A stretch of DNA of 64,000 nucleotides, taken from assembly GCF_003918875.1 (NCBI RefSeq), contig NW_025766525.1:502865-566864 (forward strand), read 5' to 3'. Each line of letters starts with the position of its first letter. Position 1 is the first letter of the stretch. The translations under genes and the position numbers were made by a program. The stretch comes from Haliotis rubra (taxonomy: Eukaryota). Under the pieces are notes generated by a model. It was not told the origin of the DNA. It worked only from the letters and a program-made list of their open reading frames with translations, and made no database searches. Shown here piece after piece: positions 27,601 through 64,000 of this stretch.

Positions 27601-27636
27601 TCCTGGAAGTATTCAGTCCTATTGTCCTTGCTGCAG

Positions 27637-32040: not shown

Positions 32041-32112
32041 ACATAATGTTATGATTTATTAGTCACCGAAATGTTAATGACATGGTATTTAGCTCACCTG
32101 GCTCTGTTGCAG

Positions 32113-32296: not shown

Positions 32297-32299
32297 GTA

Positions 32300-33286
32300 G
32301 GATGCTTTGACTGCCAGGCTGATGTTTGAGTATGTTTTGATTGCAAGGCTGATGTTTGAGTATGTCTGACTGCCAGGCTGATGTTTGAGTATGTCTGACT
32401 GCCAGGCTGATGTTTGAGTATGTTTGACTGCCAGGCTGATGTTTGAGTATGTTTGACTGCCAGGCTAATTGTTTAGTATGTTTGACAGCCAGGCTGATGT
32501 TTGAGTATGTCTGACTGCCAGGCTGATGTTTGAGTATGTCTGACTGCCAGGCTGATGTTTGAGTATGTCTGACTGCCAGGCTGATGTTTGAGTATGTTTG
32601 ACAGCCAGGCTGATGTTTGAGTATGTCTGACTGCCAGGCTGATGTTTGAGTATGTCTGACTGCCAGGCTGATGCTTTAGTATGTTTGACTGCCAGGCTGA
32701 TGTTTGAGTATGTTTGACAGCCAGGCTGATGTTTGAGTATGTCTGACTGCCAGGCTGATGTTTTAGTATGTTTGACAGCCAGGCTGATGTTTGAGTATGT
32801 TTGACTGCCAGGCTGATGTTTGAGTATGTTTGACTGCCAGGCTGATGTTTGAGTATGTCTGACTGCCAGGCTGATGTTTGAGTATGTCTGACTGCCAGGC
32901 TGATGCTTTAGTATGTTTGACTGCCAGGCTGATGTTTGAGTATGTTTGACAGCCAGGCTGATGTTTGAGTATGTCTAACTGCCAGGCTGATGCTTTAGTA
33001 TGTTTGACAGCCAGGCTGATGTTTGAGTATGTTAGACTGCTAGGCTGACGTTTTAGTATGTTTGACAGGCTGATGTTTGACTGTTTGACTGCCAGGCTGA
33101 TTTTTGAGATGTTTGACTGCCAGGCTGATGTTTGAGTATGTTTGACTGCCAGGCTGATGTTTGTGTATGTTTGACTGTCAGGCTGATGTTTGAGTGTCAG
33201 GCTGATGTTTGACTGTTTGACTGCTAGGCTAATGTTTGAGTATGTTACTGTGCCAGGCTGATGTGTGATGATGTTTTTACTTCCAG
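32300..33286. repeat. Minisatellite in PARP4 intron 11, about 29 bp x about 34 (ctgatgtttgagtatgtctgactgccagg), abutting exon 12
   Basis: Each unit contains ccag|gctgatg, which is identical to the real acceptor plus the first 7 nt of exon 12 (ccag|GCTGATGag). Confidence 0.9.
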
Positions 33287-34605: not shown

Positions 34606-35172
34606 CATTCTTTTCCCACAGAGGTTACTCCTGTCATATCTTCCCACATGTAACCTCTGTTCTAATAATGCCCTTTCATGGTGTGAGCTGCTTCAAGACT
34701 CCTCGGATTGGAGACAATCAGATTTAGTTGTGCAATCAGCAACGCTTGTTTCAAAAGTGATCATTCGCAAGGCCCTCGGTAATTTCCGTGATACTTCGAG
34801 AAAACTAAACCTTCTTCCCGCGCCGATGCGCTAAACGCTTCCTCTAGACAGAACTCAGTCATGTTATGGCGGATCAGTGGATCTCCATCGCCTCGCTGAC
34901 AACGGACAAGCTAGCCATTAAACGCCTTGTGTGTAACATCAACACAAGTCCCCGCAGATGGGGATATTTGTGGCTTCACATTTGCTTGTGTTAGTCAAGT
35001 TGAATCTAAGTCGATGTAACACCTGTTCTGATTGGATAGAAAGAAGGGAGATAATTCATTTTGCGATCTTTGCCGCTTAGGGATTTTAAGAGAACCGGGA
35101 AATATGGCCGTATTAGAACAGAGGTTACGTGTAGGAAGATATGACAGGAGTAACCTCTGTGGGAAGAGAATG
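34606..35172. mobile_element. MITE (about 567 bp, TIRs of about 55 bp), copy 1, in PARP4 intron 14
   Basis: The left TIR is cattcttttcccacagaggttactcctgtcatatcttcccacatgtaacctctgttctaata. Its reverse complement lies at 35118-35172 (tattagaacagaggttacgtgtaggaagatatgacaggagtaacctctgtgggaagagaatga). Confidence 0.7.
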
Positions 35173-35809
35173 ATGAAGAGACACTGGTAAGTTTGGCTGA
35201 AGGTCAACAGTGAAGGTCGTGGACATTATCTCATGGACAGAGATGAAGAGACACTGGTAAGTTTGGCTGAAGGTCAACAGTGAAGGTCATGGAGCTTATC
35301 TCATGGACAGAGATGAAGAGACACTGGTAAGTTTGGCTGAAGGTCAACAGTGAAGGTCATGGAGCTTATCTGATGGACAGAGATGAAGAGACACCGGTAA
35401 GTTTGGCTGAAGGTCAACAGTGAAGGTCATGGAGCTTATCTGATGGACAGAGATGAAGAGACACCGGTAAGTTTGGCTGAAGGTCAACAGTGAAGGTCAT
35501 GGAGCTTATCTGATGGACAGAAGATGAAGAGACACACCTGTAAGTTTGGCTCAAGGTCAACAGTGAAGGTCATGGAGCTTATCTGATGGACAGAGATGAA
35601 GAGACACTGGTAAGTTTGGCTGAAGGTCAACAGTGAAGGTCATGGAGCTTATCTCATGGACAGATTAAGAGACACTGGTAAGTTTGGCTGAAGGTCAACA
35701 GTGAAGGTCATGGAGCTTATCTGATGGACAGAGATGAAGAGACACCGGTAAGTTTGGCTGAAGGTCAGTAGTGATGCTCATGGAGCTTATCTGATGGACA
35801 GAGATGAAG

Positions 35810-36377
35810 CATTCTCTTCCCACAGAGGTTACTCCTGTCATATCTTCCCACGTAACCTCTGTTCTAATAATGGCCCTTTCATGGTGTGAAGCGTTCAAGA
35901 CTTCGTGATTGGAGACAATCAGATTTAGTTGTGCAATCAGCGGCGTTGTTTCAAAAGTGATCATTTGCAAGGCCTCGGTAATTTCCGTATACTCGAGAAA
36001 ACTAAACCTCTTCCCCTGCGCGCGATGCGCATAGCGTTTCCTCTAGACAGAACTCAGTCATGTTATGGCCCGGATCAGTGGCGTCTCCATCGCCCTCGTT
36101 GACAACGGACAAGCTAGCCATTAAAGCGTCTTGTGTGTAACATCAACACAAGTCCCCGGCAGATGGGGGATATTTGTGGCTTCACATTTGCTTGTGTTAG
36201 TCAAGTTGAATCTAAGTCGATGTAACACCTGTTCTGATTGGATAGAAAGAAGGGAGATAATTGCATTTTTGCGATCTTTTGCGCTAGGGATTTTAAGAGA
36301 ACGGGAAATATGGTCAGATTAGAACAGAGGTTACGTGAGGAAGATATGACAGGAGTAACCTCTGTGGGAAGAGAATG
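35810..36377. mobile_element. MITE copy 2 (same family as 34606-35172)
   Basis: It is near-identical to copy 1 and sits in the same donor-repeat context. This implies duplication of a MITE-plus-array block. Confidence 0.7.
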
Positions 36378-36679
36378 AGATGAAGAAGAGACACTGGTAA
36401 GTTTGGCTGAAGGTCAACAGTGAAGGTCATGGAGCTTATCTCATGGACAGAGATGAAGAGACATTGGTAAGTTTGGCTGAAGGTCAACAGTGAAGGTCAT
36501 GGAGCTTATCTCATGGACAGAGATGAAGAGACACTGGTAAGTTTGGCTGAAGGTCAACAGTGAAGGTCATGGAGCTTATCTCATGGACAGAGATGAAGAG
36601 AGAATGGTAAGTTCGGTCATCAGTGAAGGTTATGGGGTGTGTTGTAAGAGAAGGTCATTTATCCATTCTGATGGACAGA

Positions 36680-37200
36680 ATTTTAGGATTGCAGTAAGTT
36701 AGAGGTGAAGGTCTGACAGGGATGTTGTCAGGGAAGATTGTGGATCTTGTCTGATACAGTAAGTTAGAGGTGAAGGTCTGACAGGGATGTTGTCAGGGAA
36801 GATAGTGGCTCTTGTCTGATACAGCAAGTTAGAGGTGAAGGTCTGACAGGGATGTTGTCAGGGAAGATTGTGGATCTTGTCTGATACAGTAAGTTAGAGG
36901 TGAAGGTCTGACAGGGATGTTGTCAGGGAAGATTGTGGATCTTGTCTGATACAGTAAGTTAGAGGTGAAGGTCTGACAGGGATGTTGTCAGGGAAGATTG
37001 TGGATCTTGTCTGATACAGTAAGTTAGAGGTGAAGGTCTGACAGGGATGTTGTCAGGGAAGATAGTGGCTCTTGTCTGATACAGCAAGTTAGAGGTGAAG
37101 GTCTGACAGGGATGTTGTCAGGGAAGATTGTGGATCTTGTCTGATACAGTAAGTTAGAGGTAAGGTCTGACAGGGATGTTGTCAGGGAAGATTGTGGATC
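36680..37200. repeat. Tandem array, about 62 bp x 8 (cagtaagttagaggtgaaggtctgacagggatgttgtcagggaagattgtggatcttgtctgata)
   Basis: Read directly. Confidence 0.85.
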
Positions 37201-37319
37201 TTGTCTGATACAGTAGAGAATAACGTCTTGATTGAAAGAGAACAACAGGGCTCCCACGGGTCAGGGAAAAGTCAGAACCAGGCATATTGATATTGCTGTC
37301 ATCACTAAGAACCAGTTTC

Positions 37320-37985: not shown

Positions 37986-38125
37986 AGAACTGCTGCCAAG
38001 GCTGTAGTGCAGATGTGTCATGGACAGTCAATACAAGATGGCTTCCAGCTCCTGATTGGGCTGGCTGAGATACACGTGCCACGGATGTGGGTAGAGAGAC
38101 ATCCAGAGAGAGAGACATGCATCAG
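37986..38125 (+). CDS. PARP4: PARP4 exon 17 (end of VIT domain), with a phase problem at its 3' end
   Basis: The acceptor is cttccag|AGA. RTAAKAVVQMCHGQS...GLAEIHVPRMWVERHPERETCI matches human RTDCKAVISTMEGSS...GLSAAYLPRMWVEKHPEKESE. The only GT donor (CATCAG|gtaggc) leaves phase 2, which is incompatible with exon 18 (phase 0). The difference is one AG unit in a (AG)5 run. Confidence 0.6.
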
Positions 38126-40010
38126 GTAGGCTGGCAGAGGAATGATGGTCTAGTTTGTGGGTAGAGAGACATCCAGAGAGAGAGAGACATGCATCAGGCA
38201 GGCAGGCAGAGGAATGATGGTCTAGTTTGTGGGTGGAGAGACATCCAGACAGAAAGAGACATGCATCAGGTAGGCTGGCAGAGGAATGATGGTCTGGTTT
38301 GTGGGTGGAGAGACATCCAGAGAGAGACATGCATCAGGTAGGCAGGCAGAGGAATGATGGTCTAGTTTGTGGGTGGAGAGACATCCAGAGAGAGAGAGAC
38401 ATGCATCAGGTAGGCAGGCAGAGGAATGATGGTCTAGTTTGTGGGTAGAGAGACATCCAGAGAGAGAGAGACATGCATCAGGCAGGCAGGCAGAGGAATG
38501 ATGGTCTAGTTTGTGGGTGGAGAGACATCCAGACAGAAAGAGACATGCATCAGGTAGGCAGGCAGAGGAATGATGGTCTAGTTTGTGGGTGGAGAGACAT
38601 CCAGAGAAAGACATGCATCAGGTAGGCAGGCAGAGGAATGATGGTCTAGTTTGTTGGTGGAGAGAGACCAGAGAGAGAGAGAGACATGTATCAGGTAGGC
38701 AGGCAGAGGAATGATGGTCTAGTTTGTGGGTAGAGAGACATCCAGAGAGAGACATGCATCAGGTAGGCAGGCAGAGGAATGATGGTCTAGTTTGTGGGTG
38801 GAGAGACATCCAGGAGAGACACATCAGGTAGGCAGGCAGAGAGATGGTCATGCATCCAGAGACATGCATCAGGTAGGCAGGCAGAGGAATGATGGTCTAG
38901 TTTGTGGGTGGAGAGACATCCAGAGAGACATGATCATAGGCTGGCAGAGGAATGATGGTCTTGTTTGTGGGTAGAGGACATCCAGGCATCAGAGGAATGA
39001 TGGTCTAGTTTGTGGGTGGAGAGACATCCAGAGAGAGACATGCATCAGGTAGGCAGGCAGAGGAATGATGGTCTAGTTTGTGGGTAGAGAGACATCCAGA
39101 GAGAGAGAGACATGCATCAGGTAGGCAGGCAGAGGAATGATGGTCTAGTTTGTGGGTGGAGAGACATCCAGAGAGAGACATGTATCAGGTAGGCAGGCAG
39201 AGGAATGATGGTCTAGTTTGTGGGTGGAGAGACATCCAGAGAGAGACATGTATCAGGTAGGCAGGCAGAGGAATGATGGTCTAGTTTGTGGGTAGAGAGA
39301 CATCCAGAGAAAGACATGTATCAGGTAGGCTGGCAGAGAAATGATGGTCTGGTTTGTGGGTGGAGAGACATCCAGAGAAAGACATGCATCAGGTAGGCAG
39401 GCAGAGGAATGATGGTCTAGTTTGTGGGTGGAGAGACATCCAGAGAGAGAGAGACATGTATCAGGTAGGCAGGCAGAGGAATGATGGTCTAGTTTGTGGG
39501 TAGAGAGACATCCAGAGAGAGACATGCATCAGGTAGGCAGGCAGAGGAATGATGGTCTAGTTTGTGGGTGGAGAGACATCCAGAGAGAGACATGCATCAG
39601 GTAGGCAGGCAGAGGAATGATGGTCTAGTTTGTGGGTGGAGAGACATCCAGAGAGAGACATGCATCAGGTAGGCAGGCAGAGGAATGATGGTCTAGTTTG
39701 TGGGTGGAGAGACATCCAGAGAAAGACATGTATCAGGTAGGCAGGCAGAGGAATGATGGTCTAGTTTGTGGGTAGAGAGACATCCAGAGAGAGAGAGACA
39801 TGCATCAGGTAGGCAGGCAGAGGAATGATGGTCTAGTTTGTGGGTGGAGAGACATCCAGAGAGAGACATGTATCAGGTAGGCAGGCAGAGGAATGATGGT
39901 CTAGTTTGTGGGTGGAGAGACATCCAGAGAGAGAGACATGCATCAGGTAGGCAGGCAGAGGAATGATGGTCTAGTTTGTGGGTAGAGAGACATCCACAGA
40001 GAGAGACATG
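38050..40010. repeat. Exon 17 donor-derived minisatellite in intron 17, about 68-76 bp x about 27
   Basis: The unit gtgggtggagagacatccagagagagacatgcatcag|gtaggcaggcagaggaatgatggtctagttt reproduces the exon 17 3' end (WVERHPERETCI) plus the GT donor. The (ag)n length varies between copies. ORFs 38028-38614 and 39253-39525 are artefacts. Confidence 0.9.
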
Positions 40011-40150
40011 CATCAGGCAGGGGATGCCGCATGCGACATGTTATATGTGTGTTTGGATCGTTGTTGTTGTTTGAGTAACATCATGGTGTGCCAGGTTCAT
40101 GTTGGGTATTCCCTCCACAATCATTCTTTGTTCTTCATTCTATATTCTAG

Positions 40151-40337
40151 GCCTGCATGTTGACATTTTACCCTGAGTTTGAGGCTGACGAGGACGATGA
40201 TGTGGAAATTGTGTTCGTCCTTGACCTCTCCAATTCCATGTCTGGTGATGCAGTGCTGGATGCCAAGAAGCTGTTGATGATGTTGCTGCACAACTTGCCA
40301 CCGCGCTCTACCTTCAACGTCCTCTGCTTCGGAACAG
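40151..40337 (+). CDS. PARP4: PARP4 exon 18 (vWA domain start)
   Basis: The acceptor is tattctag|GCC and the donor is ACAG|gtcagt, phase 1. ACMLTFYPEF...VEIVFVLDLSNSMSGDAVLDAKKLLMMLL...FNVLCFGTG matches human ACMLVFQPDL...EVIICLDCSSSMEGVTFLQAKQIALHAL...VNIIQFGTG. Confidence 0.85.
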
Positions 40338-40469
40338 GTCAGTGTCATCCACAGAGTGTGGTCCTAAGTATGTGATTTGACAATGAATTGTTGATGGGGA
40401 ATGATAAGACATATAAAGGAAATAATTAGTAAACTTATTCAATGACATAATACTTAGATGATGGGGGGA

Positions 40470-43140
40470 TGTTGTGGATTGGTAACGTCATGACACAAGG
40501 TTGTGGGAAGGTTGTAGATTGGTAACATCATGACACAGCGTTGTGGGAAGGTTGTAGATTGGTAATGTCATGACACAATGTTGTGGGAAAGTTGTAGGTT
40601 AGTAACATCATGACACAACGTTGTGGGAAGGTTGTAGATTGGTAACGTCATGACACAACGCTGTGGGAAGGTTGTAGATTGGTAATGTCATGGTACAATG
40701 TTGTGGGAAGGTTGTAGATTGGTAACATCATGACAACATTGTGGGAAGGTTGTCGATTGGTAATGTCATGACACAAGGTTGTGGGAAGGTTGTAGATTGG
40801 AAACGTCATGACAACGTTGTGGGAAGGTTGTAGATTGGTAACGTCATGACAGCAATTTTGTGGGAAGGTTGTAGATTAGTAACGTCATGACACAAGGTTG
40901 TGGGAAGGTTGTAGATTGGTAACATGATGACACAGCGTTGTGGGAAGGTTGTAGATTGGTAATATCATGACACAGTGTTGTGGGAAGATTGTAGATTGGT
41001 AACGTCATGACACAACGTTGTGGGAAGGTTGTAGATTGGTAACATCATGACACAGCATTGTGGGAAGGTTGTAGATTGGTAACGTCATGACACAACGTTG
41101 TGGGAAGGTTGTAGATTGGTAATGTCATGACACAATGTTGTGGGAAGGTTGTAGATTGGTAACATCATGACACAATGTTGTGGGAAGGTTTTAGATTGGT
41201 AACGTCATGACACAATGTTGTGGGAAGGTTGTAGATTTGTAATGTCATGACACAACATTGTGGGCAGGTTATAGATTGGTAACGTCATGACACAATGTTG
41301 TGGGGATGTTGTAGATTAGTAACATCATGACAACGTTGTGGGAAGGTTGTAGATTGGTAACGTCATGAAACAACGTTGTGGGAAGGTTATAGATTGGTAA
41401 TGTCATGAGAAAAGGTTGTGAAAAGGTTATAGATTGGTAACGTCATGACACAATGTTGTGGGAAGGTTGCAGATTGGTAATGTCATGACACAATGTTGTG
41501 GGGATTTTGTAGATTGGTAACGTCATGACACAATGTTGTGGGGATGTTGTAGATAAGTAACATCATGACACAGCGTTGTGGGAAGGTTGTAGATTGGTAA
41601 TGTCATGACACAACGTTGTGGGAAGGTTATAGATTGGTAATGTCATGAGAAAAGGTTGTGAAAAGGTTATAGATTGGTAACGTCATGAGAAAAGGTTGTG
41701 GGAAGGTTGTAGATTGGTAATGTCATGACACAGCGTTGAGGGAAGGTTGTAGATTGGTAACGTCATGAGAAAAGGTTGTGGGAAGGTTATAGATTGGTAA
41801 TGTCATGACACAGCGTTGTGGGAAGGTTATAGATTGGTTACGTCATGAGAAAAGGTTGTGGGAAGGTTGTAGATTGGTAATGTCATGACACAGCGTTGTG
41901 GGAAGGTTGTAGATTGGTAACGTCATGACAAAGGTTGTGGGAAGGTTATAGATTGGTAATGTCATGACACAGCGTTGTGGGAAGGTTATAGATTGGTAAC
42001 GTCATGAGAAAAGGTTGTGGGAAGGTTGTAGATTGGTAATGTCATGACACAGCGTTGTGGGGATGTTGTGGATTGGTAACGTCATGACACAATGTTGTGG
42101 GGATGTTGTAGATTGGTAACGTCATGACACAAGGTTGTGGGAAGGTTGTAGATTGGTAACATCATGACACAGCGTTGTGGGAAGGTTGTAGATTGGTAAT
42201 GTCATGACAGCGTTGTGGGAAGGTTGTAGATTGGTAATGTCATGACACAGGCGTTGTGGGAAGGTTGTAGATTGGTAATGTCATGACACAGCGTTGTGGG
42301 AAGGTTGTAGATGTCATGACACAGCGTTGTGGGAAGGTTGTAGGTTGGTAATGTCATGACACAGCATTGTGGGAAGGTTGTAGATTGGTAACATCATGAC
42401 ACAACGCTGTGGGAAGGTTGTAGATTGGTAATGTCATGACACAGCGTTGTGGGAAGGTTGTAGATTGGTAATGTCATGACACAGCGTTGTGGGAAGGTTA
42501 TAGATGTCATGACACAGCGTTGTGGGAAGGTTATAGATTGGTAATGTCATGACACAGCGTTGTGGGAAGGTTGTAGGTTGGTAATGTCATGACACAGCGT
42601 TGTGGGAAGGTTGTAGATGTCATGACACAGCGTTGTGGGAAGGTTGTAGGTTGGTAATGTCATGACACAGCGTTGTGGGAAGGTTGTAGATTGGTAATGT
42701 CATGACACAACGTTGTGGGAAGGTTATAGATTGGTAATGTCATGACACAGCGTTGTGGGAAGGTTGTAGATGTCATGACACAGCGTTGTGGGAAGGTTGT
42801 AGATGTCATGAGACAGCGTTGTGGGAAGGTTGTAGATGTCATGACACAGCGTTGTGGGAAGGTTGTAGATGTCATGACACAGCGTTGTGGGAAGGTTGTA
42901 GGTTGGTTATGTCATGACACAGCGTTGTGGGAAGGTTGTAGATTGGTAATGTCATGACACAACGTTGTGGGAAGGTTATAGATTGGTAATGTCATGACAC
43001 AGCGTTGTGGGAAGGTTGTAGATGTCATGACACAGCATTGTGGGAAGGTTGTAGATGTCATGACACAGCGTTGTGGGAAGGTTGTAGATGTCATGACACA
43101 GCGTTGTGGGAAGGTTGTAGATGTCATGACACAGCGTTGT
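40470..43140. repeat. Minisatellite in PARP4 intron 18, about 39 bp x about 68 (gttgtgggaaggttgtagattggtaacgtcatgacacaa)
   Basis: Read directly. ORFs 42660-43208 are artefacts. Confidence 0.9.
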
Positions 43141-43459
43141 GGCAAATTGCCAAATAAACATTGAAGTGAATTTCTGCTTTGTTTCTTACTACTGGGAAAA
43201 CAATTCAACTATTAACATAAATAGAACGTTAAGTCAACGTAAAATACGTTAGTGTCAAATACCTTAACGTAAATGGGAGCCCATCAGAATAACGTTGTAA
43301 CAGCGAAAGCATAATGTGGTGACTTCATTTTGTAGAATAGACGAATATGGGTCTGAATGATGACATAAAGGAAGACACCCTAGTTTGTGAACTATGATAA
43401 ATTGGGAGTAATATTTGAGTAAGTTATGTTCCTGTACATGGTGTTTGGTGTGTTGCCAG

Positions 43460-47459: not shown

Positions 47460-48700
47460 AAACACTGTCAGTGTTGTGGGGTGGCTTATCTCACCACTGT
47501 GGGATGGCTTATCTCACTTCTGTGGGGTGGCTTATCTCATCACTGTGGGGTGGCTTATTTCACCACTGTGGGGTGGCTTATTTCACCACTGTGGGGTGGC
47601 TTATCTCACCACTGTGGGGTGGCTTATCTCACTACCGTGGGACGGCTTATCTCACCACAGTATGATGGCTTATCTCACCACTGTAGGGTGGCTTATCTCA
47701 CCACTGTGGGGGAATTATCTCTTTTCCGTTGGGGGCTTATCTCACCACTATTGGGTGGGGTATCTCACCACTGTGGGGTGGCTTGTCTCACCTCTGTGTG
47801 TGTGTGTGGGGGGGCTTGGGGGCCTTATCTCACCACTGTAGGATGGCTTATCTCATCACTGTAGGGTGGCTTATCTCACCACTGTGGGGTGGCTTATCTC
47901 ACTTCTGTGGAGTAGCTTATCCCATCACTGTGGGGTGGCTTATCTCACCACTGTGGGGTGGCTTATCTCACCACTGTGGGGTGGCTTATCTCACTTCTGT
48001 GGAGTAGCTTATCTCATCACTGTGGGGTGGCTTATCTCATCACTGTAGGCTGGCTTATCTCACTTCTGTTGGGGGCTTATCTCACCACTATTGGGTGGGG
48101 TATCTCACCGCTGTGGGGTGGCTTGTTTCATGACTGTGGGGCTGCTTATCTCACCAATCTGGGGTGGCTTATCCCATCACTGTGGGGTGGCTTATCTCAC
48201 CACTGTGGGGGTTTATCTCACTTCTGTGGAGTAGCTTATCTCATCACTGTGGGGTGGCTTATCTCACCACTGTTGGGGGCTTATCTCACTTCTGTTGGGG
48301 GCTTATCTCACCACTATTGGGTGGGGTATCTCACCACTGTGGGGTGGCTTGTCTCACCACAGGGTGTGTGTGTGGGGGGGCCTTATCTCACCACTGAGGG
48401 GTGGCTTATCTCACCACTGTGGGGGGCTTATCTCACCACTGTGGGGTGGCTTATCTCACCACTGTGGGGTGGCTTATCTCACCACTGTGGGATGGCTTGT
48501 CTCATCACTGTGGGTGGCTTATCTCATCACTGCGGGTGGCGTATCTCACCACTATTGCTTGGCTTATCTCACCACTATTGCTTGGCTTATCTCACCACTG
48601 TGGGGTGGCTTATCTTACCACTGTGGGGTGGCTTGTCTCACCACTGTGGGGTGGTGTATCTCATCACTGTGGCTTATGTCGACACTTTTGGGTGGCTTAT
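47460..48700. repeat. Minisatellite in PARP4 intron 21, about 23 bp x about 54 (cactgtggggtggcttatctcac)
   Basis: Read directly. ORFs 47454-48747 are artefacts. Confidence 0.9.
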
Positions 48701-55104: not shown

Positions 55105-55254
55105 GCCAGCCTGGCTAGTAACATTGTCTTGAATGCACATGTTAAAGATGCACTTCACACAATGCCTCAATAGCTGACATGTTCATGTGTTGTAAAGGCA
55201 CCAAGCACATTAGGGTATAAATGTTCAATTTAGTTTCCTGTGAGGAAGTGTGTG

Positions 55255-55560
55255 GTCATCACTGAGGTAAAAGATCATGGCAGACCTAGAAGACCGAGGA
55301 AGACCAATGACTGTTATGTTGTGACTGTTAAGTCCACACTGCTGGTGTGGTGTTGTGTGTGGCCATCAGTGAGGTAAAAGATCATCGCAGACCTAGAAGA
55401 CCGAGGAAGACCAATGACTGTTATGTTCTGACTGTTAAGTCCACACTGCTGGTGTGGTGTTGTGTGTGGCCATCAGTGAGGTAAAAGATCATCGCAGACC
55501 TAGAAGACCGAGGAAGACCAATGACTGTTATGTTGTGACTGTTAAGTCCACACTGCTGGT
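55255..55560. repeat. Tandem repeat, about 120 bp x 3
   Basis: ggccatcagtgaggtaaaagatcatcgcagacctagaagaccgaggaagaccaatgactgttatgtt.tgactgttaagtccacactgctggtgtggtgttgtgtgt occurs three times. Confidence 0.85.
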
Positions 55561-55952
55561 GTGGTGTTTTGTGTCAATGAGTTGGATCTCGTTACCGGGC
55601 GGAAGTACTGGATACTGCAATCATGCCACATTTGATCACCATCCCAATTCCAGGCCCAGCTTGTTACTGTAAAGGGCACTTGCTCTTCAGCCACTGGTGC
55701 TCCACAGGGATGTGCCCTTTCTCCTATCTCGTTTATTTGCTCTACAAATAACTGCCAGTGTACAATAACTGTCTTATGATGCAGCTCAGCTGGTTTTGAT
55801 AAGGATTCAGAACTGGAATACAAAGCAGAGATTTCTAAATTTGTCATGGTGTAAAGGTACTTTTCTATTCTTTAATTGTAACAAAACTACAGAAATTAGT
55901 ATAGATTTCAGAAAATGGAAATGGTCTTAGTCTTTGGTTCTGAAATTTTAAA

Positions 55953-56156
55953 CTTATCCTATCTCACAGTATGCACCTCTCCTCTTCTTCTACGACCATG
56001 TTTGGAAAAGTGCTGTAGGCTAAGTTGAATCAAATCTTGCTGGCCTCTGACCCGCCCTGACCTCTGCCCCCACTCCGACATCAGCACCTGTCAATCATCT
56101 CCGCAAGTGTGGAGCTCGCTCAGATGATCATGTGACTACCTGTGCCTGTCATTCTC
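55953..56156. repeat. DIRS-like element left ITR
   Basis: It runs cttatcctatctcacagtatgcacctctcctcttcttctacgaccatgtttgg...cctgtgcctgtcattctc, the reverse complement of 62501-62701. Confidence 0.85.
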
Positions 56157-56692
56157 TTTCTTGTCACTACGTGGTGTGGACGTGTGCTTGTCTCTAAGAA
56201 AGTTTGATTGTGTTTCCAACAATGGGAAAATCTAATCGCAGTGGTTCTAAGAAGCGCAAACATCGCGGTAATTGTAACAGTAACTTCTCGGCGGCAGACC
56301 CACATGCTTAGGTCGTTGTGAGTGGTCTCAACGTTGTACTTTTTGTGCAGACCTCAACGACGATGATTTCTCTGAATACCGACGGGTGGCTTGTAGACGC
56401 ATGTCAGATAGGGATCGTTGAAAACCATCTGAGGGTCCATCTGCATCCGTCGTTCGAAGTCCCCGACTCCTAATGAAGATTTCCTAGGGGAGGCGTCTGA
56501 TTCTTACCTCAGTGGAAACTTACGGCAACTTTTCCGACCGCATGCCTCTAACCCCATAACTTTAGAAGACTCTTCTCCACCTAGGGTTGTCGTGTTATCT
56601 ACATCTTCTCTTCAGCCCCGTCCGTCTTCGGTGATAGCTATCCCTCAGTGCACTTTGGGTCCTGAGGTGGGGATTTCTGGTGCGGCGATGGT

Positions 56693-57759
56693 GTGATTCC
56701 TAGCATTACATCTCAAGTGACGCTTCCTTGCAGTGCGGCGCTTTCCACTTTGGTGGTTGTTACTACGTCTGTTTCCCATTCGGTGTTTGCGTCGAATGTG
56801 TCACTTGCTTTGGGTACAGGGGATAGTTTTGATGCGGCGCTTTCTCATCCTCCGGTGGGGTTGACAAGTGTGTCGATGATTCCCAGAGTACCTTTTTCCA
56901 CTTCTATCCCGTATCCTGTACCGTTTGGTTATGGGCCACCATTCAGCGTTCTTGTTTGCCCCCAGTTCAGTGCTTACTACTGGTGCTCCTGGTTCGGCGC
57001 TTCCTCTCGGTGTTCCCGGTTCGGCGCTAATTCATGCAGGCTTGGGTTCGGTACTTCCTCATGGTGCTCCCGGTGCGGCGCTTACTCATAGTACTCCCGG
57101 TTCAGCGCTTCCCCACGGTGTTTGTGCTTCGGTGCTTAGGCATATTGTTCCTGGTTCGGCGCTTTCTCATAGTTCACTGGCTTCAAGATTGACTCATGGG
57201 GCGTTTGGTTCGCTGCTTCCTCAGGGTTTAGTGCTTACCTATCATGTGTCTAGTTCAGCGCTGGGTCCGCTCAGCTCAACTTTTGCTGTCAATGCCCGGG
57301 ACCTTACGGCTTCATCGTTGCTTCATAGGGGTGTGTCTCAGTCTGCTAGAGGTCCGTCTTCTCTTAGTGAGGTGCCACATCATCTCTCGGTGTCTGCTTC
57401 TGTTTCGTCGGTTCCTCCTACAATGGGATCGGTGGCCAGACCCATTTTACCGGTATCCTGGAATCTGGGGTCTGAGGTTTCGAGTTCTCAACCTATGGAC
57501 CTATGTTATTGTGCTAGCGGTAGCGTCAGCATTACGACAGCAGGTGTCAGCATCTTCCTCTGCTAATCAGTCATCAGGTCCTTTGACTACTCCAGTTCCT
57601 CTTTTAGAGGAGGTTCATCGTTCGACGACGCCATCTCCTTCGTGTGATGATACGGCACTATCCGATGGGTGCATGGATGCTGTTGACACACCTCAACTAC
57701 TTGTCTGGATTGCCGATAGCCTTCGTTTACAGCATAGTAGTTTGCCGGGGGATTTATAA
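56693..57759 (+). other. DIRS-like element 5' ORF region (putative gag-like), spread over three overlapping frames
   Basis: ORFs 56693..57091, 56925..57566 and 57244..57759 overlap in different frames and are Ser/Pro/Leu-rich. Frameshifts or decay are implied. Confidence 0.3.
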
Positions 57760-58473
57760 TCCAGTTTTGACATGAAGCCAGGTGACTTTGGCTCTATCAC
57801 GTTCCCGCCTCGTCCGTGTATTACTCAATTGGCAGCATCTCTGGATGAGGCTTTTGGTAACCTGAGGAAGGTTAAGGATGGGTTTGCGGCTCCTCACTTC
57901 AATTTAGCATCTGCTCATGTTCATGGTTTTTCTACGCTAATCGTCTCCCCTCCGGTGGATGATGATATTGCATTGCTGTGCACTAAACAGAAAGCCTACT
58001 CGCCGTTGCTGGTTGAGGATCGTGAGCTTTTGCATTTGGATGGTGTCATAAGGAAGATTATGCCGCCACTCAACATGTTGTTGAGGACTACCGAAGCGGT
58101 GGCTATGTCGGTTGCGCATGCTACGTCCCATCAACATGTGTGTATATTCGGGCAGCTATGGTCTTATTGCAACAGCAATTCCAGACCATTCTAGATCAGT
58201 TGGCTCACTTCTTTTCGTACATCACAGCTGTGCGTCGCATGGGGCCTTTGCACTTATCCTCTTTGGAGGATTGGTTCCGTATTGATCTCTTTCGGCAGCC
58301 ATGGTCTGGCAGATAAATTTTCAACGGGGCAGTTAGAGATGTCGCCAACAGAGTAGGTCAAGATGCTCATTTACAAGTGTCAGTGGAATTGTTGAAGTTC
58401 CAGCGTTTGCAGGTGGAGGAATCATTGCGCCAGCGACGGCCAGCCCGTTATGTCCATGTGAATCCGGACCTTC

Positions 58474-59364
58474 GTGCGGGTTCTGCTGCTTCCTTTCGTG
58501 GTAATGGATCCTTTGGGAGAGGACGACTCAACCATCAACGTCGGGCATCCACTGCTTCACAATCAGCTCCCACTTCCGACCAGCCCACTTTGCAAACACC
58601 TGACAAACAGTGACTTGAGGACATTAGCAGGCGACTTGGTTCTTCCACCTCCAGTCATGCCCATTCTGACTTCCCCAGTAGGCGGCTGGCTTGGGACTTA
58701 TGCTCCCAACTGGACCATCTTGGGAAACCCCTTCGTCCTCTCCATGTTGTCCATGGGTTTTCAGCTGCCACTCATCGGGGATCCTCCTCTCACTTTACTT
58801 CCAGATCGCAGAACGTATCCCGCTCAACAAACGGCAGTTCTGCGATCCACAATAGACACCTTACTCAAGAAACTTGCGATCGAATCCCTGGGTCCGGCTC
58901 CCACCGCCCCGGGGTTCTATTCTCCAATCTTTCTGGTCCCCAAGAAGGATTCGGACAAACTGAGGTTAATCTTCAACATGAAGATTTTCAACGAGATGTT
59001 TCTGCAGCCTCCGCCCCATTTTCGCATGGTATTGGTGGCACTCCTCAAGACCATTATCAAGCCGGGAGACTACATGGTCAGTTTGGATCTCCAGGATGCG
59101 TACCTTCACATCCCGATCTTCCTGGCTCATCACAAGTTCCTTCGGTTTGTCTTCGAGGGCACCCACTATCAGTGGCGTGTCCGCCCGTTTGGAATTTCTT
59201 CAGCCCCGTGGCTGTTTACATGGGTAACGAAACCTATCACCAGCTTCCTTCACCACAAGGGGATAGTGTTCGAAGCTTACATTGACGACTGCATTCAGGC
59301 GCAGACCGATCATGCCCTTTTGCTTCGTCACATGCAGTTACGATACAGCTTCTTCGCCAATTAA
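58474..59364 (+). CDS. Reverse transcriptase domain ORF of the DIRS-like element
   Basis: It carries FYSPIFLVPKKDSDKLRLIFNMKIFN (RT motifs 1-2), LDLQDAYLHIPI (motif A/B region), QWRVRPFGISSAPWLFT and YIDDCI (a YxDD-like box). Confidence 0.8.
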   Translation: MRVLLLPFVVMDPLGEDDSTINVGHPLLHNQLPLPTSPLCKHLTNSDLRTLAGDLVLPPPVMPILTSPVGGWLGTYAPNWTILGNPFVLSMLSMGFQLPLIGDPPLTLLPDRRTYPAQQTAVLRSTIDTLLKKLAIESLGPAPTAPGFYSPIFLVPKKDSDKLRLIFNMKIFNEMFLQPPPHFRMVLVALLKTIIKPGDYMVSLDLQDAYLHIPIFLAHHKFLRFVFEGTHYQWRVRPFGISSAPWLFTWVTKPITSFLHHKGIVFEAYIDDCIQAQTDHALLLRHMQLRYSFFAN

Positions 59365-59813
59365 GCTGGTTAATCAATCTGCAGAAATTGGAACTAGCCC
59401 CTATGCACCATCTTCAATTCATTGGAGCAGTGTTCGACACAGAGGCCAACAAACTCTTTGTCCCGAGGGATCGTTTCTACAAGATTCAGCGATTGGTTTC
59501 TCTGGCACTGGTGCAACCCAGGACGCTTCGTCAGTGGCAGGAGCTCCTGGGCCTCTTGACGTCGGCTCAGGCGTTCACCCTCAGGGGTCAACTACAACTT
59601 CGTCCCTTGCAGTTCTTTGTAGCGCCTTACATCAGAGTGGGAGATCCCGTTGCCTTGATCACTCTACCTCTGCAGCTCCATCCCCATCTCCTGTGGTGGA
59701 TGGCAGAATTGAATGTTTGCGACGGAGTTTGTTTAGGGCCGTTTGTTCCGTCTTACCACCTGTATGCGGACGTGTCTCTACACAGGTGAGGAGCTCATCT
59801 TCTCAATCAACAA

Positions 59814-60407
59814 GTGGCAGGGCGGTGGTCTCCCATCGATCGCGCCTGTCACATCAACGTTCTGGAGTTCAGGGCGGTGATGCTTGCAATCAGTCACTGG
59901 CAGGATGTCCTACGAGCAACTTCCCTCATGATCCGGTCGGACAACGCAGCGGTGATTTGGCATATCAACAGGATGGGGTCCACGGGGTCAACTCAACTGC
60001 TGCAGTGGACCCAACGGTTTCTTCGATCTGGTGGACTCTCTCCACATCATGGTATGAGCCAACTACATTCCGGGGGTGAAGAATGTCATCGCAGATTCTC
60101 TGTCCCGACTGAGTCGTCCCTCTCCAACGGAATGGAAATTACATCCTCAGGTGTTCCAGACCTGTTGCCTTCCATTGACGACTCTGACAGTGGATCTCTT
60201 CGCCACTCAATTCAACCATCAGCTGCCTCGGTTTGTGTCACCGATTCCGGATCCTCTGGCTTGGGACCTCGATGCCCTAGCCATTCCGTGGGAGGACCTG
60301 AACGCTTACGCGTTTCCACCAGTGGCCCTTCTTCCTCGCATATTAGTGAAGCTGCGTGCAACTCAGAGGATGACTCATCTTTTGGTCGCGTCCTATTGGC
60401 CGGCTAG
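59814..60407 (+). CDS. RNase H domain ORF of the DIRS-like element, frameshifted relative to RT
   Basis: It carries INVLEFRAVMLAI and IRSDNAAVIWHINRMG, typical RNase H catalytic motifs. The adjoining ORF 60076..60561 carries KNVIADSLSR, the end-of-RNase-H motif of DIRS/Ngaro pol. Confidence 0.65.
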   Translation: MAGRWSPIDRACHINVLEFRAVMLAISHWQDVLRATSLMIRSDNAAVIWHINRMGSTGSTQLLQWTQRFLRSGGLSPHHGMSQLHSGGEECHRRFSVPTESSLSNGMEITSSGVPDLLPSIDDSDSGSLRHSIQPSAASVCVTDSGSSGLGPRCPSHSVGGPERLRVSTSGPSSSHISEAACNSEDDSSFGRVLLAG

Positions 60408-60506
60408 AAGCTGGTTCGTAAACCTTCAAGACATAGCCGAACCAGATCCCGTGCCACTTCCTGTTCGACCTGATCTACTGGTACATCCGCACACCGACCA
60501 ACTGCA

Positions 60507-61644
60507 TTGGTCCCCGATGACGCTCCATCTGCACGTTTGGTGCATCTACATCGGTCGTTAACGGCTAAGACCTATTCTAAGCGTGTGGCTACTGCCATTA
60601 CTACAGCGCATCGTACTTCTACGAGGTCACTCTACGATGACAAATGGAAGAATTTCAAAGCGTATTGCAGGAAGAGGGGCGTCTCATCCCTCACTACGGC
60701 GTCCCCGCAGATGGTGGCAGAGTACCTTTAGCATCTCTGAACCTCCAGAAAACTCAAAGGTTCTTCACTAGCTACCTATCTGGTGGCTCTTAACACGGTT
60801 ATTGCAGCGGCCTCAGGTGTGAAGGTGTCCACCGAGCTGAACTCGAGTCTCTCCTCCGGTCTTACACCCGCCGTGATGTTGCTGGAATATTGCTAAAAGC
60901 AACGTAAAACCAAACTCAGTCAGTCAGTCTTACAAACTGGCTCACCAATCTCGGAAGTTCCGGCCTCCAGCTTGGAATCTTTCCGTTGTACTTGCTCATC
61001 TCACGTCAGCTGATTATGAACCTTTGGAAGAGAAAGATTTCGAACATGTCTCCTTTAAGATCTTCTTTCTATTGGTCTTGGCTACGGCTGCTCGTATTTC
61101 TGAGTTGCATGCTCTTGATGATTCTCGGGTGCGGTTTGAAAGGTCTAGACATACAAAAGTTTTCCTTGGTTTGCGGTGGGATCTTCTCGCCAAGAATCAG
61201 TTACCAGGACAGCCGGATCGCACATTCACGATTCCGCCGTTGTCCTCTATCTTGGGCCCATATGACACTGAGGATCTGTCCTTATGCCCGGTGCGTGCAT
61301 TAAGGATTTACTTAGCTGCCTCACAGGATCGCCGCAGACTGCGTAAAAGATTGTTCATTCCATTGTCTACTGCCTCCACCTCGGAAGTCTCCCGTACTAC
61401 CTTGGCGTTTTGGATGCGAACTACAATCCTGCGTGCTTATGCCTTTGCTGACCTACCTCCACCGTCGAAGGTGAAGCGTCATGAGACTCGAGCTCTTGTC
61501 TCCACCATGGCTCTTCACAGAAATTGTTCCCTGCAGTCCATCATGGAGGGCTGTTTTTTACGATCAGATACGGTGGAAGGTCTACATCAATTCGGCCCCC
61601 TGGTCCTGGCGCAGCAATTGTCATCGGCCCGCGTTCGCAGATAA
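60507..61644 (+). CDS. Tyrosine recombinase of the DIRS-like element, across two ORFs (60507..60731 and 61024..61644)
   Basis: The N-terminal part is SLYDDKWKNFKAYCRKRGV...VAEYL. The catalytic part carries FLLVLATAARISELHAL, CPVRALRIYL and RHETRALVSTMAL (H-x-x-R box). Confidence 0.75.
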
Positions 61645-62367
61645 AGCAATCCTTCTTTGGTCGGTGTTGCTCTGTACATAATAAAAGATATCGATGTAAT
61701 CCATGTCTTGGTACTTTTTTCTATTTGTGCTTAGATTATTCTCACCTATGGGAATAGAGCGTGTCTGCACTGTCATCAGTTATGACTTAATAGACTGTGA
61801 GGCCAGTCTTGTGCTACATGCAGAGATGATCGACACTCCACTTACTGACCTCTACGCTCTGAGCAATTACGTCAGTTAAGTGTTGATTTCCGATTACATA
61901 CATGGTTTTCAAAGCGTTCTGCTCCTGATTCCTTTCTCACCTTTGGTACGTTAGGGAGATTGGTACTGAACGTTAAACTAGTTGAGCAACCGAACTATTC
62001 CCTCTTTCACCGCCTTCCAGCGTGTGTCTGTGGGGGGTAGTTTCGAAGCAGGGACTGGCCAGATTAAGGTCCTCAACTTTAATTCACTGGGGTCACCTGA
62101 TAAATCGCGGGACGGCGGTGCCTAGTTGCCGAACTGCATCCTTTTGCTTGTCAAAAGTTGCGGCTGAAAACCACATTAATTCGGGAACACCCACTCCCTA
62201 GAGTTTTTGTGCTGTGTAAGCCAAGGGGTTACGTGAAGAAACCCATCTCAAGTTGGAGTTTGCATATCGGGAGTTGGTGCTTTCTCCTGGCCTCCTTGGG
62301 TTATGCGTTTTTCCTAGTGGTAGTAACGGGGTAATCTGCGACTTGCCTACCAGCCGTGGGATTATGC

Positions 62368-62446
62368 ATACCGTGAGATAGGATAAGTTTAAACATTTGA
62401 AAATTTTATTATATATTGTATATTTATATACTTATCCTATCTCACG
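62368..62446. repeat. Internal complementary region (ICR) of the DIRS-like element, a hairpin-forming segment
   Basis: Within gtgagataggataagtttaaacatttgaaaattttattatatattgtatatttatatacttatcctatctcac, the left half is the reverse complement of the left outer terminus (tgaaattttaaacttatcctatctcac, 55940-55967). The right half is the reverse complement of the right outer terminus (gtgagataggataagtatataaatatacaatttataat, 62686-62725). Confidence 0.7.
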
Positions 62447-62500
62447 CGATAGGACCCACCCAACCTGCCCCACATCACAGATTACTGGAAGCTCCAAGAC

Positions 62501-62701
62501 GAGAATGACAGGCACAGGTAGTCACATGATCATCTGAGCGAGCTCCACGCTTGCGGAGATGATCGACAGGTGCTGATGTCGGAGTGGGGGCAGAGGTCAG
62601 GGCGGGTCAGAGGCCAGTAAGATTTGATTCAACTTAGCCTACAGCATGTTTCCAAACATGGTCGTAGAAGAAGAGAGGTGCATACTGTGAGATAGGATAA
62701 G
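62501..62701. repeat. DIRS-like element right ITR
   Basis: It runs gagaatgacaggcacaggtagtcacatgatcatctgagcgagctccac...ggtgcatactgtgagataggataag. Confidence 0.85.
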
Positions 62702-63155
62702 TATATAAATATACAATTTATAATAAAATTTTCAAAATTTGAAACTGTTTATCAGTACAAGTATCTTGGTACACTCAGAACATATTGTCTTTAGTACAAG
62801 GTGAATTTGCTTAAGTATTCATATAAAACATGGCATGCACACTGTGTATGTACACACACTGAAGTCGATTCTTATAAACATATGCATCGTCTTTTCAGAT
62901 TGCTAATGTAATAATGAGCTTGCAGAATATGTAGATAACTCTACAAAATCAGTGCAATAAGTGCAATAATGCAACACAAGCCCCGCCCATTGTTTTTCCA
63001 GCCAATCAGGCAACAGTTGTTTGTTTGTGGGTACAGCGCAATTTCTTTTTAGTTTTTGGAAACAATCTTGTTTAACTAATCTCTTGCAATTAGTGAATTT
63101 AAAAATGTAAATGTGATTCATATTTTAATGTAAATGTATGTGTTTTTCTTTCAGG

Positions 63156-64000
63156 CTATAGTCTCCTTGGACTACAACGTAAATTGTTGCGGGAAGAGCC
63201 CGCTGAGAAAAAGAAGCAACATGGAGCACAATTTGCAACAGGCAATAGAGGTAGTACAAGACGCCCGCTTCCTCCATTGACTGAGACTGGGGGTCTTGGC
63301 CAGGCAATGGCAGCTGAATGGATAGCTGAACAGTGTGGTGAGTTGGAGGAGTCGGAGGATGAAGACATGGGGTTTGGATTGTTTGATGATGACACTCCCA
63401 CAAGTTCCAAATATGCCGCTCCTGATGGACAGGAGGTCTTGCCTGGAAACACAGCAGTAGGAGGAGGGGCCCCACCCCACTTGCCAGTCCGAGCTGTTAC
63501 AGGCATTGAAGGAGTGGAGTTTGGTCATGTTGCAGCGAAATCAGTGAAAATGAAGAGAAAGTCCAAATTATTCTTTCCTCCTCCACTTCCAGTCATCCAT
63601 CCAATGATGTCTGCAGGGCCCCCAATACCCACTGTGGCACCTGCAAGTCATGGTCGTGCTTCTCTGCTTCAACAAATAGGCAATGGCAAACAGTTAAAGA
63701 AAGTTATTGAGCCTCAAATTGCTCGTATACAAAGTAATGCACCCATGCACTTTCAAGCTAAACAGTTTTCTGATGAAGCATTTCGCCCTTATGCCAGATG
63801 TACCAGTTCGGACACAGCCTCTCCAAGAGCAGGACTAGCTTCAAGCCATCGTAAAGCCCCACCTCCACCACCTCCCCCTCCTGGACGTCATGCAGCTCCA
63901 CCTCCCCCTCCAGGACTAGCTCCTCCTCCACCTCCCACTTCTAGCCATCATGAAGCCCCGCCTCCACCACCTCCCCCTCCTGGACGTCAGGCAGCTCCAC
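63156..64000 (+). CDS. Exon of a WH2-motif, proline-rich (verprolin/WIP-like) actin-regulator gene; the ORF stays open to the window end
   Basis: The acceptor is ttctttcag|GC. The translation contains EESEDEDMGFGLFDDD, then SHGRASLLQQIGNGKQLKKV (a WH2 consensus, cf. human WIP RNALLSDISKGKKLKKT), then PPPPPPPPGRHAAPPPPPGLAPPPPP. The minus-strand ORFs 63125-63528 are the poly-Pro reverse complement. Confidence 0.5.

Follow-up and report, generated by a model that had tools for sequence, protein, structure and literature searches.

A single copy, old and non-autonomous, of what we assign with high confidence to the DIRS1-like elements (order DIRS, a group of tyrosine-recombinase retrotransposons) lies at 55945-62739 (+) of the window, the whole 64-kb stretch of Haliotis rubra DNA analysed here. 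It sits in sense orientation, with a host exon (63155-64000, for which no homolog was found at E 1e-3 or better) ~415 bp downstream, and a blastn search with the element revealed no second copy anywhere in the window. The window is very repeat-rich and contains an isolated second tyrosine recombinase (YR) relic at ~2050-2410. The best-fit ends are ATT at 55945-47 and ATT at 62737-39, as is also the case in published mollusc DIRS1-like elements (PMC3266345). These boundaries may be off by a few nt, because the junction of the internal complementary region (ICR) contains two mismatches. The earlier note had placed the element at 55935-62760; the core of that span stands, but 55940-55944 and 62740-62750 are host flank. 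The features are as follows (ITR, inverted terminal repeat).

55945-62739 (+): whole DIRS1-like element, 6795 bp, best-fit ends ATT...ATT, set by the limits of complementarity between termini and ICR
55945-55952 (+): left terminus, 'divergent ITR' part (ATTTTAAA), from a four-way alignment anchored on the shared 15-mer
55953-56156 (+): left ITR, conserved part, 204 nt, beginning with the 15-mer CTTATCCTATCTCAC and 96% complementary to 62501-62701
56223-58613 (+): ORF1 (putatively gag-like), broken across all three frames, from three-frame translation
58648-59355 (+): reverse transcriptase (RT), Pfam RVT_1 1.3e-12, tblastn with the homologous proteins P0009 and P0001, frame 1
59340-60057 (+): RT connection and RNase H (RH), tblastn with P0009 residues 241-469, frame 3
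60076-60561 (+): methyltransferase-like (Dam-like) domain (MT), between RNase H and YR, pol stop at 60559-60561
60555-61644 (+): YR, SAM-like in its N-terminal half at 60555-60836, catalytic half at 60949-61644
61645-62364 (+): 3′ non-coding spacer from the YR stop to the ICR
62365-62395 (+): left ICR (lICR), reverse complement of the left terminus 55945-55975, 28/31
62393-62446 (+): right ICR (rICR), reverse complement of the right terminus 62686-62739, 50/54
62501-62701 (+): right ITR, conserved part, 201 nt, from repeat search, blastn and global alignment
62702-62739 (+): right terminus past the ITR, divergent for 8 nt and then a right extension (rE) of ~30 nt

The ITRs of about 200 bp that had been proposed from the sequence were recovered. 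When the element was searched against the window by blastn, 55946-56156 aligned to 62708-62501 over 211 nt (95.3%, E 7e-93), and the repeat search returned an inverted repeat of 175 nt at 97%. Global alignment of 55953-56156 with the reverse complement of 62501-62701 gave 5 mismatches and one 3-nt indel (96%), and the differences between the two ITRs include changes of the CpG-to-TpG/CpA type. Beyond the conserved part, ATTTTAAA is complementary to the left ICR but just 5/8 complementary to its counterpart at the right ITR, and the complement of 62702-62739 is found solely in the right ICR. The window contains exactly four occurrences of the 15-mer CTTATCCTATCTCAC, at 55953(+), 62431(+), 62373(-) and 62687(-), one per ITR end and one per ICR half in the expected places and orientations. 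This matches the motif of at least 10 nt that is common to both ITRs and both ICRs in the published definition of DIRS1-like elements (PMC3266345).

The ICR itself occupies 62365-62446, its two halves overlapping by ~3 nt at the circular junction, which here reads CAT. Blastn matched 62365-62398 to the reverse complement of 55943-55975 (34 nt, 94%, E 4e-7) and 62386-62445 to that of 62687-62746 (60 nt, 93%, E 1e-19). Folded as DNA, the region forms a hairpin of -15.5 kcal/mol (z = -5.7) and no shuffled sequence was equally stable (0/200). The complementarity that had been noticed by eye therefore persists on alignment, at the 28/31 and 50/54 positions listed above. It had been placed just outside both ITRs, which is correct for the right side, where a true extension of 38 nt is matched by the right ICR; on the left, the lICR complements mostly the outer 23 nt of the ITR itself and only 8 nt beyond. 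The spacer upstream of the ICR showed no protein similarity in tblastn with the relatives and no Rfam family above chance. Across the element, Rfam yielded only sub-threshold miRNA-hairpin lookalikes, confined to the ICR hairpin (E 0.15-0.9, far below gathering scores), and no tRNA genes were found.

The best protein matches were RT-RH-MT proteins of Haliotis species, with E-values down to 2e-216, as against only 1e-22 for Gypsy-type (Tf2) matches, and all strong homologs have the RT-RH-MT architecture. In a search of 5.8 billion proteins the nearest, from Haliotis, were at most 64% identical in amino acids. The closest sequences found are uncharacterised Haliotis proteins, among them H. rubra LOC124252889 (P0001, whose gene model joins pol and YR pieces and in which the catalytic Tyr block is present), and the elements L001-L004 on metagenome contigs; they are 47-64% identical to the element in RT-RH-MT and 43-47% identical in YR. 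Judged by this amino-acid identity of no more than 64%, they are a different family. A same-family copy was found neither in the protein database nor in the metagenome contigs, and an RT search of the latter returned only two distant loci (27-29%), which were set aside. In L001-L004 the ORFs are intact and there is an ICR hairpin; the rICR and the right terminus are complementary at 96-100% and lie 197-228 nt apart, and the ICR/terminus sequences of these relatives are unrelated to those of the H. rubra element. The left ITR is absent from these contigs, which break there; two further contigs, L005 and L006, begin inside the ITR and have ITRs of at least 98 nt. Fragments of this kind have evidently been called as host genes in some Haliotis gene models, where DIRS RT segments are joined to DPY19L1 or PRMT5-like proteins.

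The genes follow the order ORF1, RT, RNase H, Dam-like methyltransferase and tyrosine recombinase, with no long ORF overlap. The RT, RNase H and YR first proposed were all found, together with a tentatively gag-like ORF1, but the methyltransferase-like domain had been overlooked. Within ORF1 a 27-nt (9-aa) unit is repeated in tandem at 56966-57267, and 58137-58562 is weakly similar to ORF1 of L001 and L002 (E 1e-3 and 2e-4). No Pfam family matched ORF1 of this copy or of the relatives, and its sequence only hints at a gag-like character. In the RT, the motifs LDLQDAY (59086) and YIDD (59278) are followed by a frameshift at ~59335-59345. The RNase H region contains LYADVS (equivalent to xTTDAS) at 59760 but is interrupted by two in-frame stops (59787, 60055) and shifts frame at ~60020; its Pfam RT_RNaseH match is weak (0.008) compared with 1.5e-6 in the intact relative P0009. 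The MT region contains ADSLSR (60091), AFPP (60310) and SYW (60391; PxW with P changed to S), and aligned with the Dam-matching regions of the homologs P0055 and P0065 by BLASTP (E 1e-21 and 1e-20). Dam (PF05869) was matched by 9/25 aligned homolog segments (best 6.6e-7), whilst the MT segment of this copy gave no direct Pfam match and a profile of the region found nothing meaningful among PDB sequences (best cyclin A2, E 0.17). The distances between motifs agree with published values (Additional file 3, PMC3266345): LDLQDAY to YIDD is +192 nt (published 192-195), YIDD to LYADVS +482 (476-501), LYADVS to ADSLSR +331 (327-336), ADSLSR to AFPP +219 (213-222) and AFPP to SYW +81 (78-81).

The YR carries in-frame stops at 60729, 60738 and 60894, a frameshift and an extra segment of ~20 aa. 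Comparison with L001 and L002, in which the YR is intact (45% and 43% identity), showed that the R of ATAARISEL and H-E-T-R are kept (HETR, as against the published HSTR, HSIR and HSLR; PMC3266345), but the W..S.F.S.YLR block is missing: an in-frame deletion of 14 aa (42 nt) near 61555 removes the catalytic Tyr block. The YRs of the relatives match PF00589 (3.7e-7 and 3.3e-4) and SAM-like domains, and in this copy the Pfam result was below significance (Phage_integrase weak). The YR gene is present but dead.

Taken over pol and YR, there are at least 3 frameshifts and the 5 in-frame stops given above, and ORF1 is broken; tblastn with intact relatives confirmed the frame changes, in line with the splitting of the ORFs reported earlier. 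With breaks in ORF1, pol and YR alike and the nucleophile tyrosine of the YR deleted, the copy is dead and unable to move by itself, a stronger outcome than the probable inactivity first suggested. The earlier note had also raised assembly indels as a cause, and the corresponding alternative is that the element is intact and potentially active, its frameshifts being assembly or sequencing indels. Some of the single-base frameshifts (~59335-59345, ~60020) might conceivably be homopolymer errors, and the repeat architecture is nearly complete in this copy. However, the five in-frame stops are due to substitution, and the deleted Tyr block is present in L001, L002 and Haliotis P0001. Between the ITRs there are 5 differing sites besides the 3-nt indel, and ICR and termini match at 90-93% (93% for rICR and right terminus), against 98-100% in intact relatives. 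We therefore regard an intact element as very improbable; the ITR divergence and the CpG-type changes point to real decay and not to assembly error.

The assignment of this decayed copy to the DIRS1-like elements is based on architecture, motifs and motif spacing. As defined in PMC3266345, such elements have ITRs, an adjacent lICR and rICR just upstream of the right ITR and a right extension, along with the shared motif described above, and encode GAG, RT-RH-MT and YR in that order without long ORF overlap and with conserved motif spacing. Every one of these structural and coding features was found in the element, which supports the DIRS1-like reading, and the DIRS-like identity first proposed for the locus holds in its motifs, spacings and ITR/ICR layout. 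PAT and Ngaro elements likewise encode RT, RNase H and YR, and PAT-like elements carry MT too, so that a PAT-like or Ngaro-like YR retrotransposon has to be weighed. PAT and Ngaro elements are, however, bounded by split direct repeats, whereas the terminal repeats here are inverted; the one direct-repeat signal seen at the ends (71%) arises because the ICR is palindromic, and Ngaro and VIPER are without the MT domain whose counterpart is present here. There is thus scarcely any likelihood of either. The very repeat-rich surroundings and the isolated YR relic could be taken to mean that unrelated elements, for instance a Gypsy-type RT element and a Crypton-type YR transposon, make up a composite here, or that assembly has produced an inverted duplication, with ITR and ICR coincidental. 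Against this, RT-RH-MT, YR, ICR hairpin and right-terminus complement occur with intact ORFs on single contigs in L001, L002 and L004, and neither a DDE integrase nor direct LTRs were found in our element. A four-fold 15-mer and an asymmetric right extension whose complement is confined to the ICR are also unlike an inverted assembly duplication. Next to no room is left for this explanation. A Ty3/Gypsy element was rejected, as the repeat search found no direct LTRs, no ORF matched a DDE integrase (rve) and a YR is present.

The DIRS1-like element is of a kind already well described. An ICR as clean as this one had been thought rarely annotated, a view that does not survive the literature: in 2011 the ITR/ICR architecture was annotated in 28 DIRS1-like elements, with ICRs mapped to the base, and five of these are molluscan, from Aplysia and Lottia (Piednoel et al., PMC3266345). 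A comparison of published features and motifs, as opposed to sequences, shows that LgDIRS1-3 (Lottia gigantea) and AcaDIRS1-2 (Aplysia californica) share with our element the ITRs, the lICR and rICR side by side just before the right ITR, an extension on the right but not on the left, ATT...ATT ends (a best fit in our copy), the absence of a long pol/YR overlap, and Y[I/L]DD, ADxxSR, AFPP, PxW and HSxR at the same spacings (PMC3266345). The H. rubra element is longer (6795 bp vs 4680-5808 bp), with a longer conserved ITR (~204 nt vs 31-141), a much shorter divergent ITR part (8 nt vs 30-36) and a shorter rE (~30-38 nt vs 46-49) (PMC3266345); it also differs in its long, repeat-containing ORF1 and in being degenerate. 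DIRS-1 of Dictyostelium discoideum, the founding member (Malicki et al. 2020, PMC7192593), likewise has ITRs, RT-RH-MT plus YR and a right extension, and its ICR parts complementing the outer repeat ends are of similar size (33 + 55 nt, compared with ~31 + 54 nt here). DIRS-1 is 4.8 kb with long pol/YR ORF overlaps, whereas our element has no ORF overlap, and the preferred targets of DIRS-1 are other copies of itself at centromeres, whereas ours adjoins a host exon.

How active members of the family would move is taken from the model of Cappello et al., in the form in which PMC7192593 summarises it, and only the sequence anatomy was read here. Transcription would start inside the left ITR and end inside the right ITR, giving an RNA that lacks both outer ends, and the RT/RNase H of the element would convert this to single-stranded cDNA. 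The ICR, being the complement of the right and left ends joined head to tail, would provide a template inside the element for rebuilding the missing termini and linking them. The double-stranded DNA so produced, joined or circular, would then be inserted by the element's tyrosine recombinase through recombination at a short identical core (ATT/AAT in molluscs), without target-site duplication. The anatomy needed by this model is complete here (ITRs, lICR and rICR, rE, 15-mer and RT-RH-MT-YR) and recurs in the relatives. The earlier note had invoked the ICR in a rolling-circle scheme. The ICR is experimentally essential in Dictyostelium DIRS-1, the sole member in which this has been demonstrated, but the rolling circle is only a model, and DIRS-1 cDNA is mostly linear and single-stranded (PMC7192593).

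A closer look at the junction reveals a departure from the norm, in which a 3-bp circular junction in the ICR is complementary to the NTT trinucleotide that opens and closes the element (PMC3266345). Here the ICR junction reads ...TTTAAA-CA-TTTG..., as against ...TTTAAA-AT-TTTG... predicted from the termini. The two are of equal length with 2 adjacent mismatches, so that the 3-bp circular junction is not exactly recoverable. The trinucleotide is CAT and not AAT, which is probably the result of decay in an old copy. Each host flank reads TGAA, and an 11-nt direct repeat with a single mismatch, AAATTT[T/G]AAAC, is common to the two junctions. The shared TGAA and this repeat may stem either from a repeat already present in the target or from a short target-site duplication.

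For the most part the locus is of little importance beyond annotation: it should be masked and labelled a DIRS1-like relic, and its RT, MT and YR fragments kept out of host gene calls. It also provides a further example of an ITR/ICR/right-extension layout and four-fold motif conserved in molluscan DIRS1-like elements despite unrelated sequences. The one remaining point of some interest is the similarity of the junctions beyond 3 nt. We hold it improbable that the element combines such extended junction sharing (10/11 nt, where 3 nt is canonical) with membership of a new family, at no more than 64% identity, that has an unusually short divergent ITR. Were this joint reading true, it would hint at a recombinase that chooses its targets, in the manner of an att site, by their likeness to ~10 bp at the junction of its own circle, or that resolves off-centre.

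Searching positions 55900-62800 against the 64-kb window (blastn) recovered the inverted terminal repeats (ITRs) and the internal complementary region (ICR) that the earlier note had placed here. The ITRs match over 211 nt (55946-56156 against 62708-62501, inverted) with 95.3% identity (E 7e-93), and their conserved parts (55953-56156 and, reverse-complemented, 62501-62701) are 96% identical in a global alignment, with 5 mismatches and one 3-nt indel. Two shorter inverted matches both involve one internal segment, the ICR, whose complementarity persists on alignment: 62386-62445 matches 62746-62687 (60 nt, 93%, E 1e-19) and 62365-62398 matches 55975-55943 (34 nt, 94%, E 4e-7). These repeats are far above chance, and blastn found no further copy of the element, whole or partial, within the window. 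There are exactly four copies of the 15-mer CTTATCCTATCTCAC in the window, one at each ITR's outer end and one in each ICR half, all oriented as expected; they anchor the following layout.

Repeat layout of the element, anchored on the 15-mer
55945-55952 (+): divergent left ITR
55953-56156 (+): conserved left ITR
62365-62395 (+): left ICR
62393-62446 (+): right ICR
62501-62701 (+): conserved right ITR
62702-62739 (+): divergent right ITR and right extension

So delimited, the element measures 6795 bp and has ATT at its start and end. The two termini whose complements make up the ICR are inverted repeats, and as single-stranded DNA the ICR accordingly folds on itself (-15.5 kcal/mol, z = -5.7); 0 of 200 shuffles were equally stable.

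The reverse transcriptase (RT), RNase H (RH) and tyrosine recombinase (YR) named in the earlier note were all found, and a methyltransferase-like (MT) domain missing from its list lies after RNase H (60076-60561, +). Pfam matched RVT_1 in 58474-59364 (1.3e-12) and, weakly, RT_RNaseH in 59814-60407 and Phage_integrase in 61024-61644. The MT domain of this copy is by itself below Pfam significance; the stretch matches the PF05869 (Dam)-matching parts of two homologous proteins, P0055 and P0065, at E 1e-21 and 1e-20, and PF05869 was matched by 9 of 25 aligned homolog segments (best 6.6e-7). When joined across the frame breaks of the three-frame view, RT-RH and the downstream region gave 74 matches among 5.8 billion proteins. 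Top matches were uncharacterised proteins of four Haliotis species, with identity of at most 64% and E down to 2e-216. Other top matches, encoded on metagenome or transcriptome contigs, were 47-53% identical and spanned 96-100% of the query, while Gypsy-type Tf2 matches were no better than about 1e-22. Intact relatives (tblastn) traced pol (RT-RH-MT) through frame 1 (58648-59355), frame 3 (59340-60023) and frame 1 again (60019-60540), and YR through frame 3 (60555-60836) and frame 1 (60916/60949-61620).

The YR is 45% and 43% identical to the intact proteins (336 and 362 aa) that follow pol in L001 and L002, two contigs encoding related elements. It retains the first catalytic arginine (ATAARISEL) and the H-x-x-R box (HETR) and lacks 14 residues, the W-A-x-x-S-x-F-x-S-x-Y-L-R block that is the site of the nucleophile tyrosine. 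Since the Haliotis protein P0001 has those residues, the deletion is specific to this copy. The N-terminal half has an additional segment of ~20 residues and a frameshift; coinciding with both, 60868-60937 resembles 20203-20275 (-) (73 nt at 73%), which may be a small secondary insertion. A second, isolated YR relic at 2050-2410 (-), with E down to 1e-9 for the YRs of L001, L002 and L007 (tblastn), has no adjoining RT and lies inside a block of 58% GC (2001-4000). ORF1 (56223-58613, +) is broken across all frames, matched no Pfam family and is weakly similar to ORF1 of L001 and L002 in 58137-58562 only. It contains a tandem repeat (56966-57267, +) of ~9-11 copies of a 27-nt unit (9 aa, PGSALxHGx-like). 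Another related contig, L004, has its own 60-nt repeats (L004 611-1068) inside a 968-aa ORF1, and ORF1s expanded by repeats may be frequent among elements of this group.

For comparison we took the contigs encoding seven homologs (L001-L007, the first four from metagenomes). ORF1, pol and YR are open and ordered as in the window copy in L001, L002 and L007, and ORF1 and pol are among the called genes of L004 and L005/L006. In L001-L004 a segment 3′ of the coding region has its reverse complement another 197-228 nt downstream (44-60 nt at 98-100% in L001-L003; 26 nt at 96% in L004). An internal hairpin is formed from a shared motif in L001 and L004, a hairpin is also present in L007, and L005 and L006 have ITRs of at least 98 nt. 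The match between right terminus and ICR ends sharply in L001-L003 (...AAT, ...TT or ...TTT). Because the repeat sequences are unrelated among elements, it is the complementarity itself that is maintained. The assemblies break at the inverted repeats, so none of the seven contigs spans a whole element plus its two flanks. The distant relative L005 has a 43-nt perfect direct repeat (6510-6552 and 6938-6980, spacing 428 nt) flanking its right ITR, at odds with a simple ITR/ICR layout; this may stem from the assembly, or the element may be arranged in tandem or as a concatemer.

DIRS1-like elements encode GAG, RT-RH-MT and YR, and carry ITRs, two adjacent ICRs whose overlap is a circular junction of 3 bp, a right extension complementary to the right ICR only, and a motif of at least 10 nt common to both ITRs and both ICRs (PMC3266345, Piednoel et al. 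2011). Their ends are NTT trinucleotides (ATT/ATT, with junction AAT, in 4 of 5 mollusc elements), molluscan elements have no long ORF overlap, and Additional file 3 gives motif strings and positions for 28 elements (PMC3266345).

Conserved motifs of the element, with published values (PMC3266345)
59086 (+): LDLQDAY, first motif
59278 (+): YIDD, +192 from LDLQDAY (published 192-195)
59760 (+): LYADVS, +482 from YIDD (published 476-501)
60091 (+): ADSLSR, +331 from LYADVS (published 327-336)
60310 (+): AFPP, +219 from ADSLSR (published 213-222)
60391 (+): SYW (for PxW), +81 from AFPP (published 78-81)
61480 (+): HETR, YR motif (published HSTR, HSIR, HSLR)

Compared with the published mollusc elements, this one is longer overall and has a longer conserved ITR, a far shorter divergent ITR (8 nt against 30-36) and a shorter right extension; the differences are quantitative. 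The original finding is correct, and concerns a known kind of element already annotated in detail in molluscs.

The ICR reads TTTAAA-CA-TTTG where the termini predict TTTAAA-AT-TTTG, equal in length with two adjacent mismatches. The left and right element/host junctions (55941-55953 and 62735-62747) have AAATTT[T/G]AAAC in common (10/11) and, given ATT...ATT boundaries, the host flanks are TGAA on both sides. This similarity is longer than the 3 bp reported for integration of DIRS1-like elements; nothing comparable was seen at the right ends of L001-L003. In one AT-rich, decayed copy it may be due to chance, to a target similar to the circle junction, or to a short duplication.

The surrounding window is filled with minisatellite arrays (periods 23-111 nt, each up to about 2.6 kb), which explain why the GC skew swings strongly at 24-28 kb and 38-44 kb.

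Minisatellite arrays in the window
8277-10505
21112-21624
24849-27601
29326-33195
35172-37215
38086-43142
47475-48672
55248-55574

Just 5′ of the DIRS copy, a short open frame (55636-55776, +) has a LINE-type reverse-transcriptase motif (...TGAPQGCALSPISF...), so that the insertion lies among other repeat relics; the 47-aa piece had no Pfam match. On the other side, ~415 bp downstream and on the same strand, is a host exon (63155-64000, +) preceded by a canonical 3′ splice site (ttttctttcag, then GC). Its sequence is rich in proline, includes a WH2-like motif (LLQQIGNGKQLKKV) and had no homolog at E 1e-3 or better among 5.8 billion proteins. The DIRS copy is probably intronic. Several of the Haliotis rubra gene models at NCBI (P0001, P0015, P0047), such as 'C-mannosyltransferase DPY19L1' and 'PRMT5-like', are chimeric and include stretches of DIRS RT; P0001 consists of fused pol and YR pieces. 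This points to unmasked DIRS copies in those Haliotis annotations.

At least three frameshifts and five substitution-type in-frame stops (59787, 60055, 60729, 60738 and 60894; three-frame view) interrupt pol and YR; YR has also lost its catalytic tyrosine, and ORF1 is in fragments. Between the two ITR arms there are 2.5% substitutions and an indel, ICR/terminus matches are 90-93% as against 98-100% in intact relatives, and several of the differences have the CpG to TpG/CpA pattern (CGATCATC against CAATCATC; AGCGTGG against AGTGTGG; CACGG against CACAG). The earlier note had offered inactivity or assembly indels: the stops and the tyrosine deletion bear out the former, whereas these same two features, together with the ITR and ICR divergence and the CpG-type changes, speak against a handful of assembly indels as the cause. 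This copy is the true decay of an old insertion.

Lastly, the anatomy of the element agrees with the Cappello et al. model as set out in PMC7192593; in Dictyostelium the ICR is required, and the cDNA is single-stranded and mostly linear (PMC7192593, Malicki et al. 2020). Judging by family membership, the transcript of this element would have lacked its outer ends, the RT would have copied it into cDNA, the ICR would have served as template for rebuilding and joining the termini, and the YR would then have carried out recombination between the joined ends and a short, identical stretch of target. The element is a new, dead member of the DIRS1-like retrotransposons.
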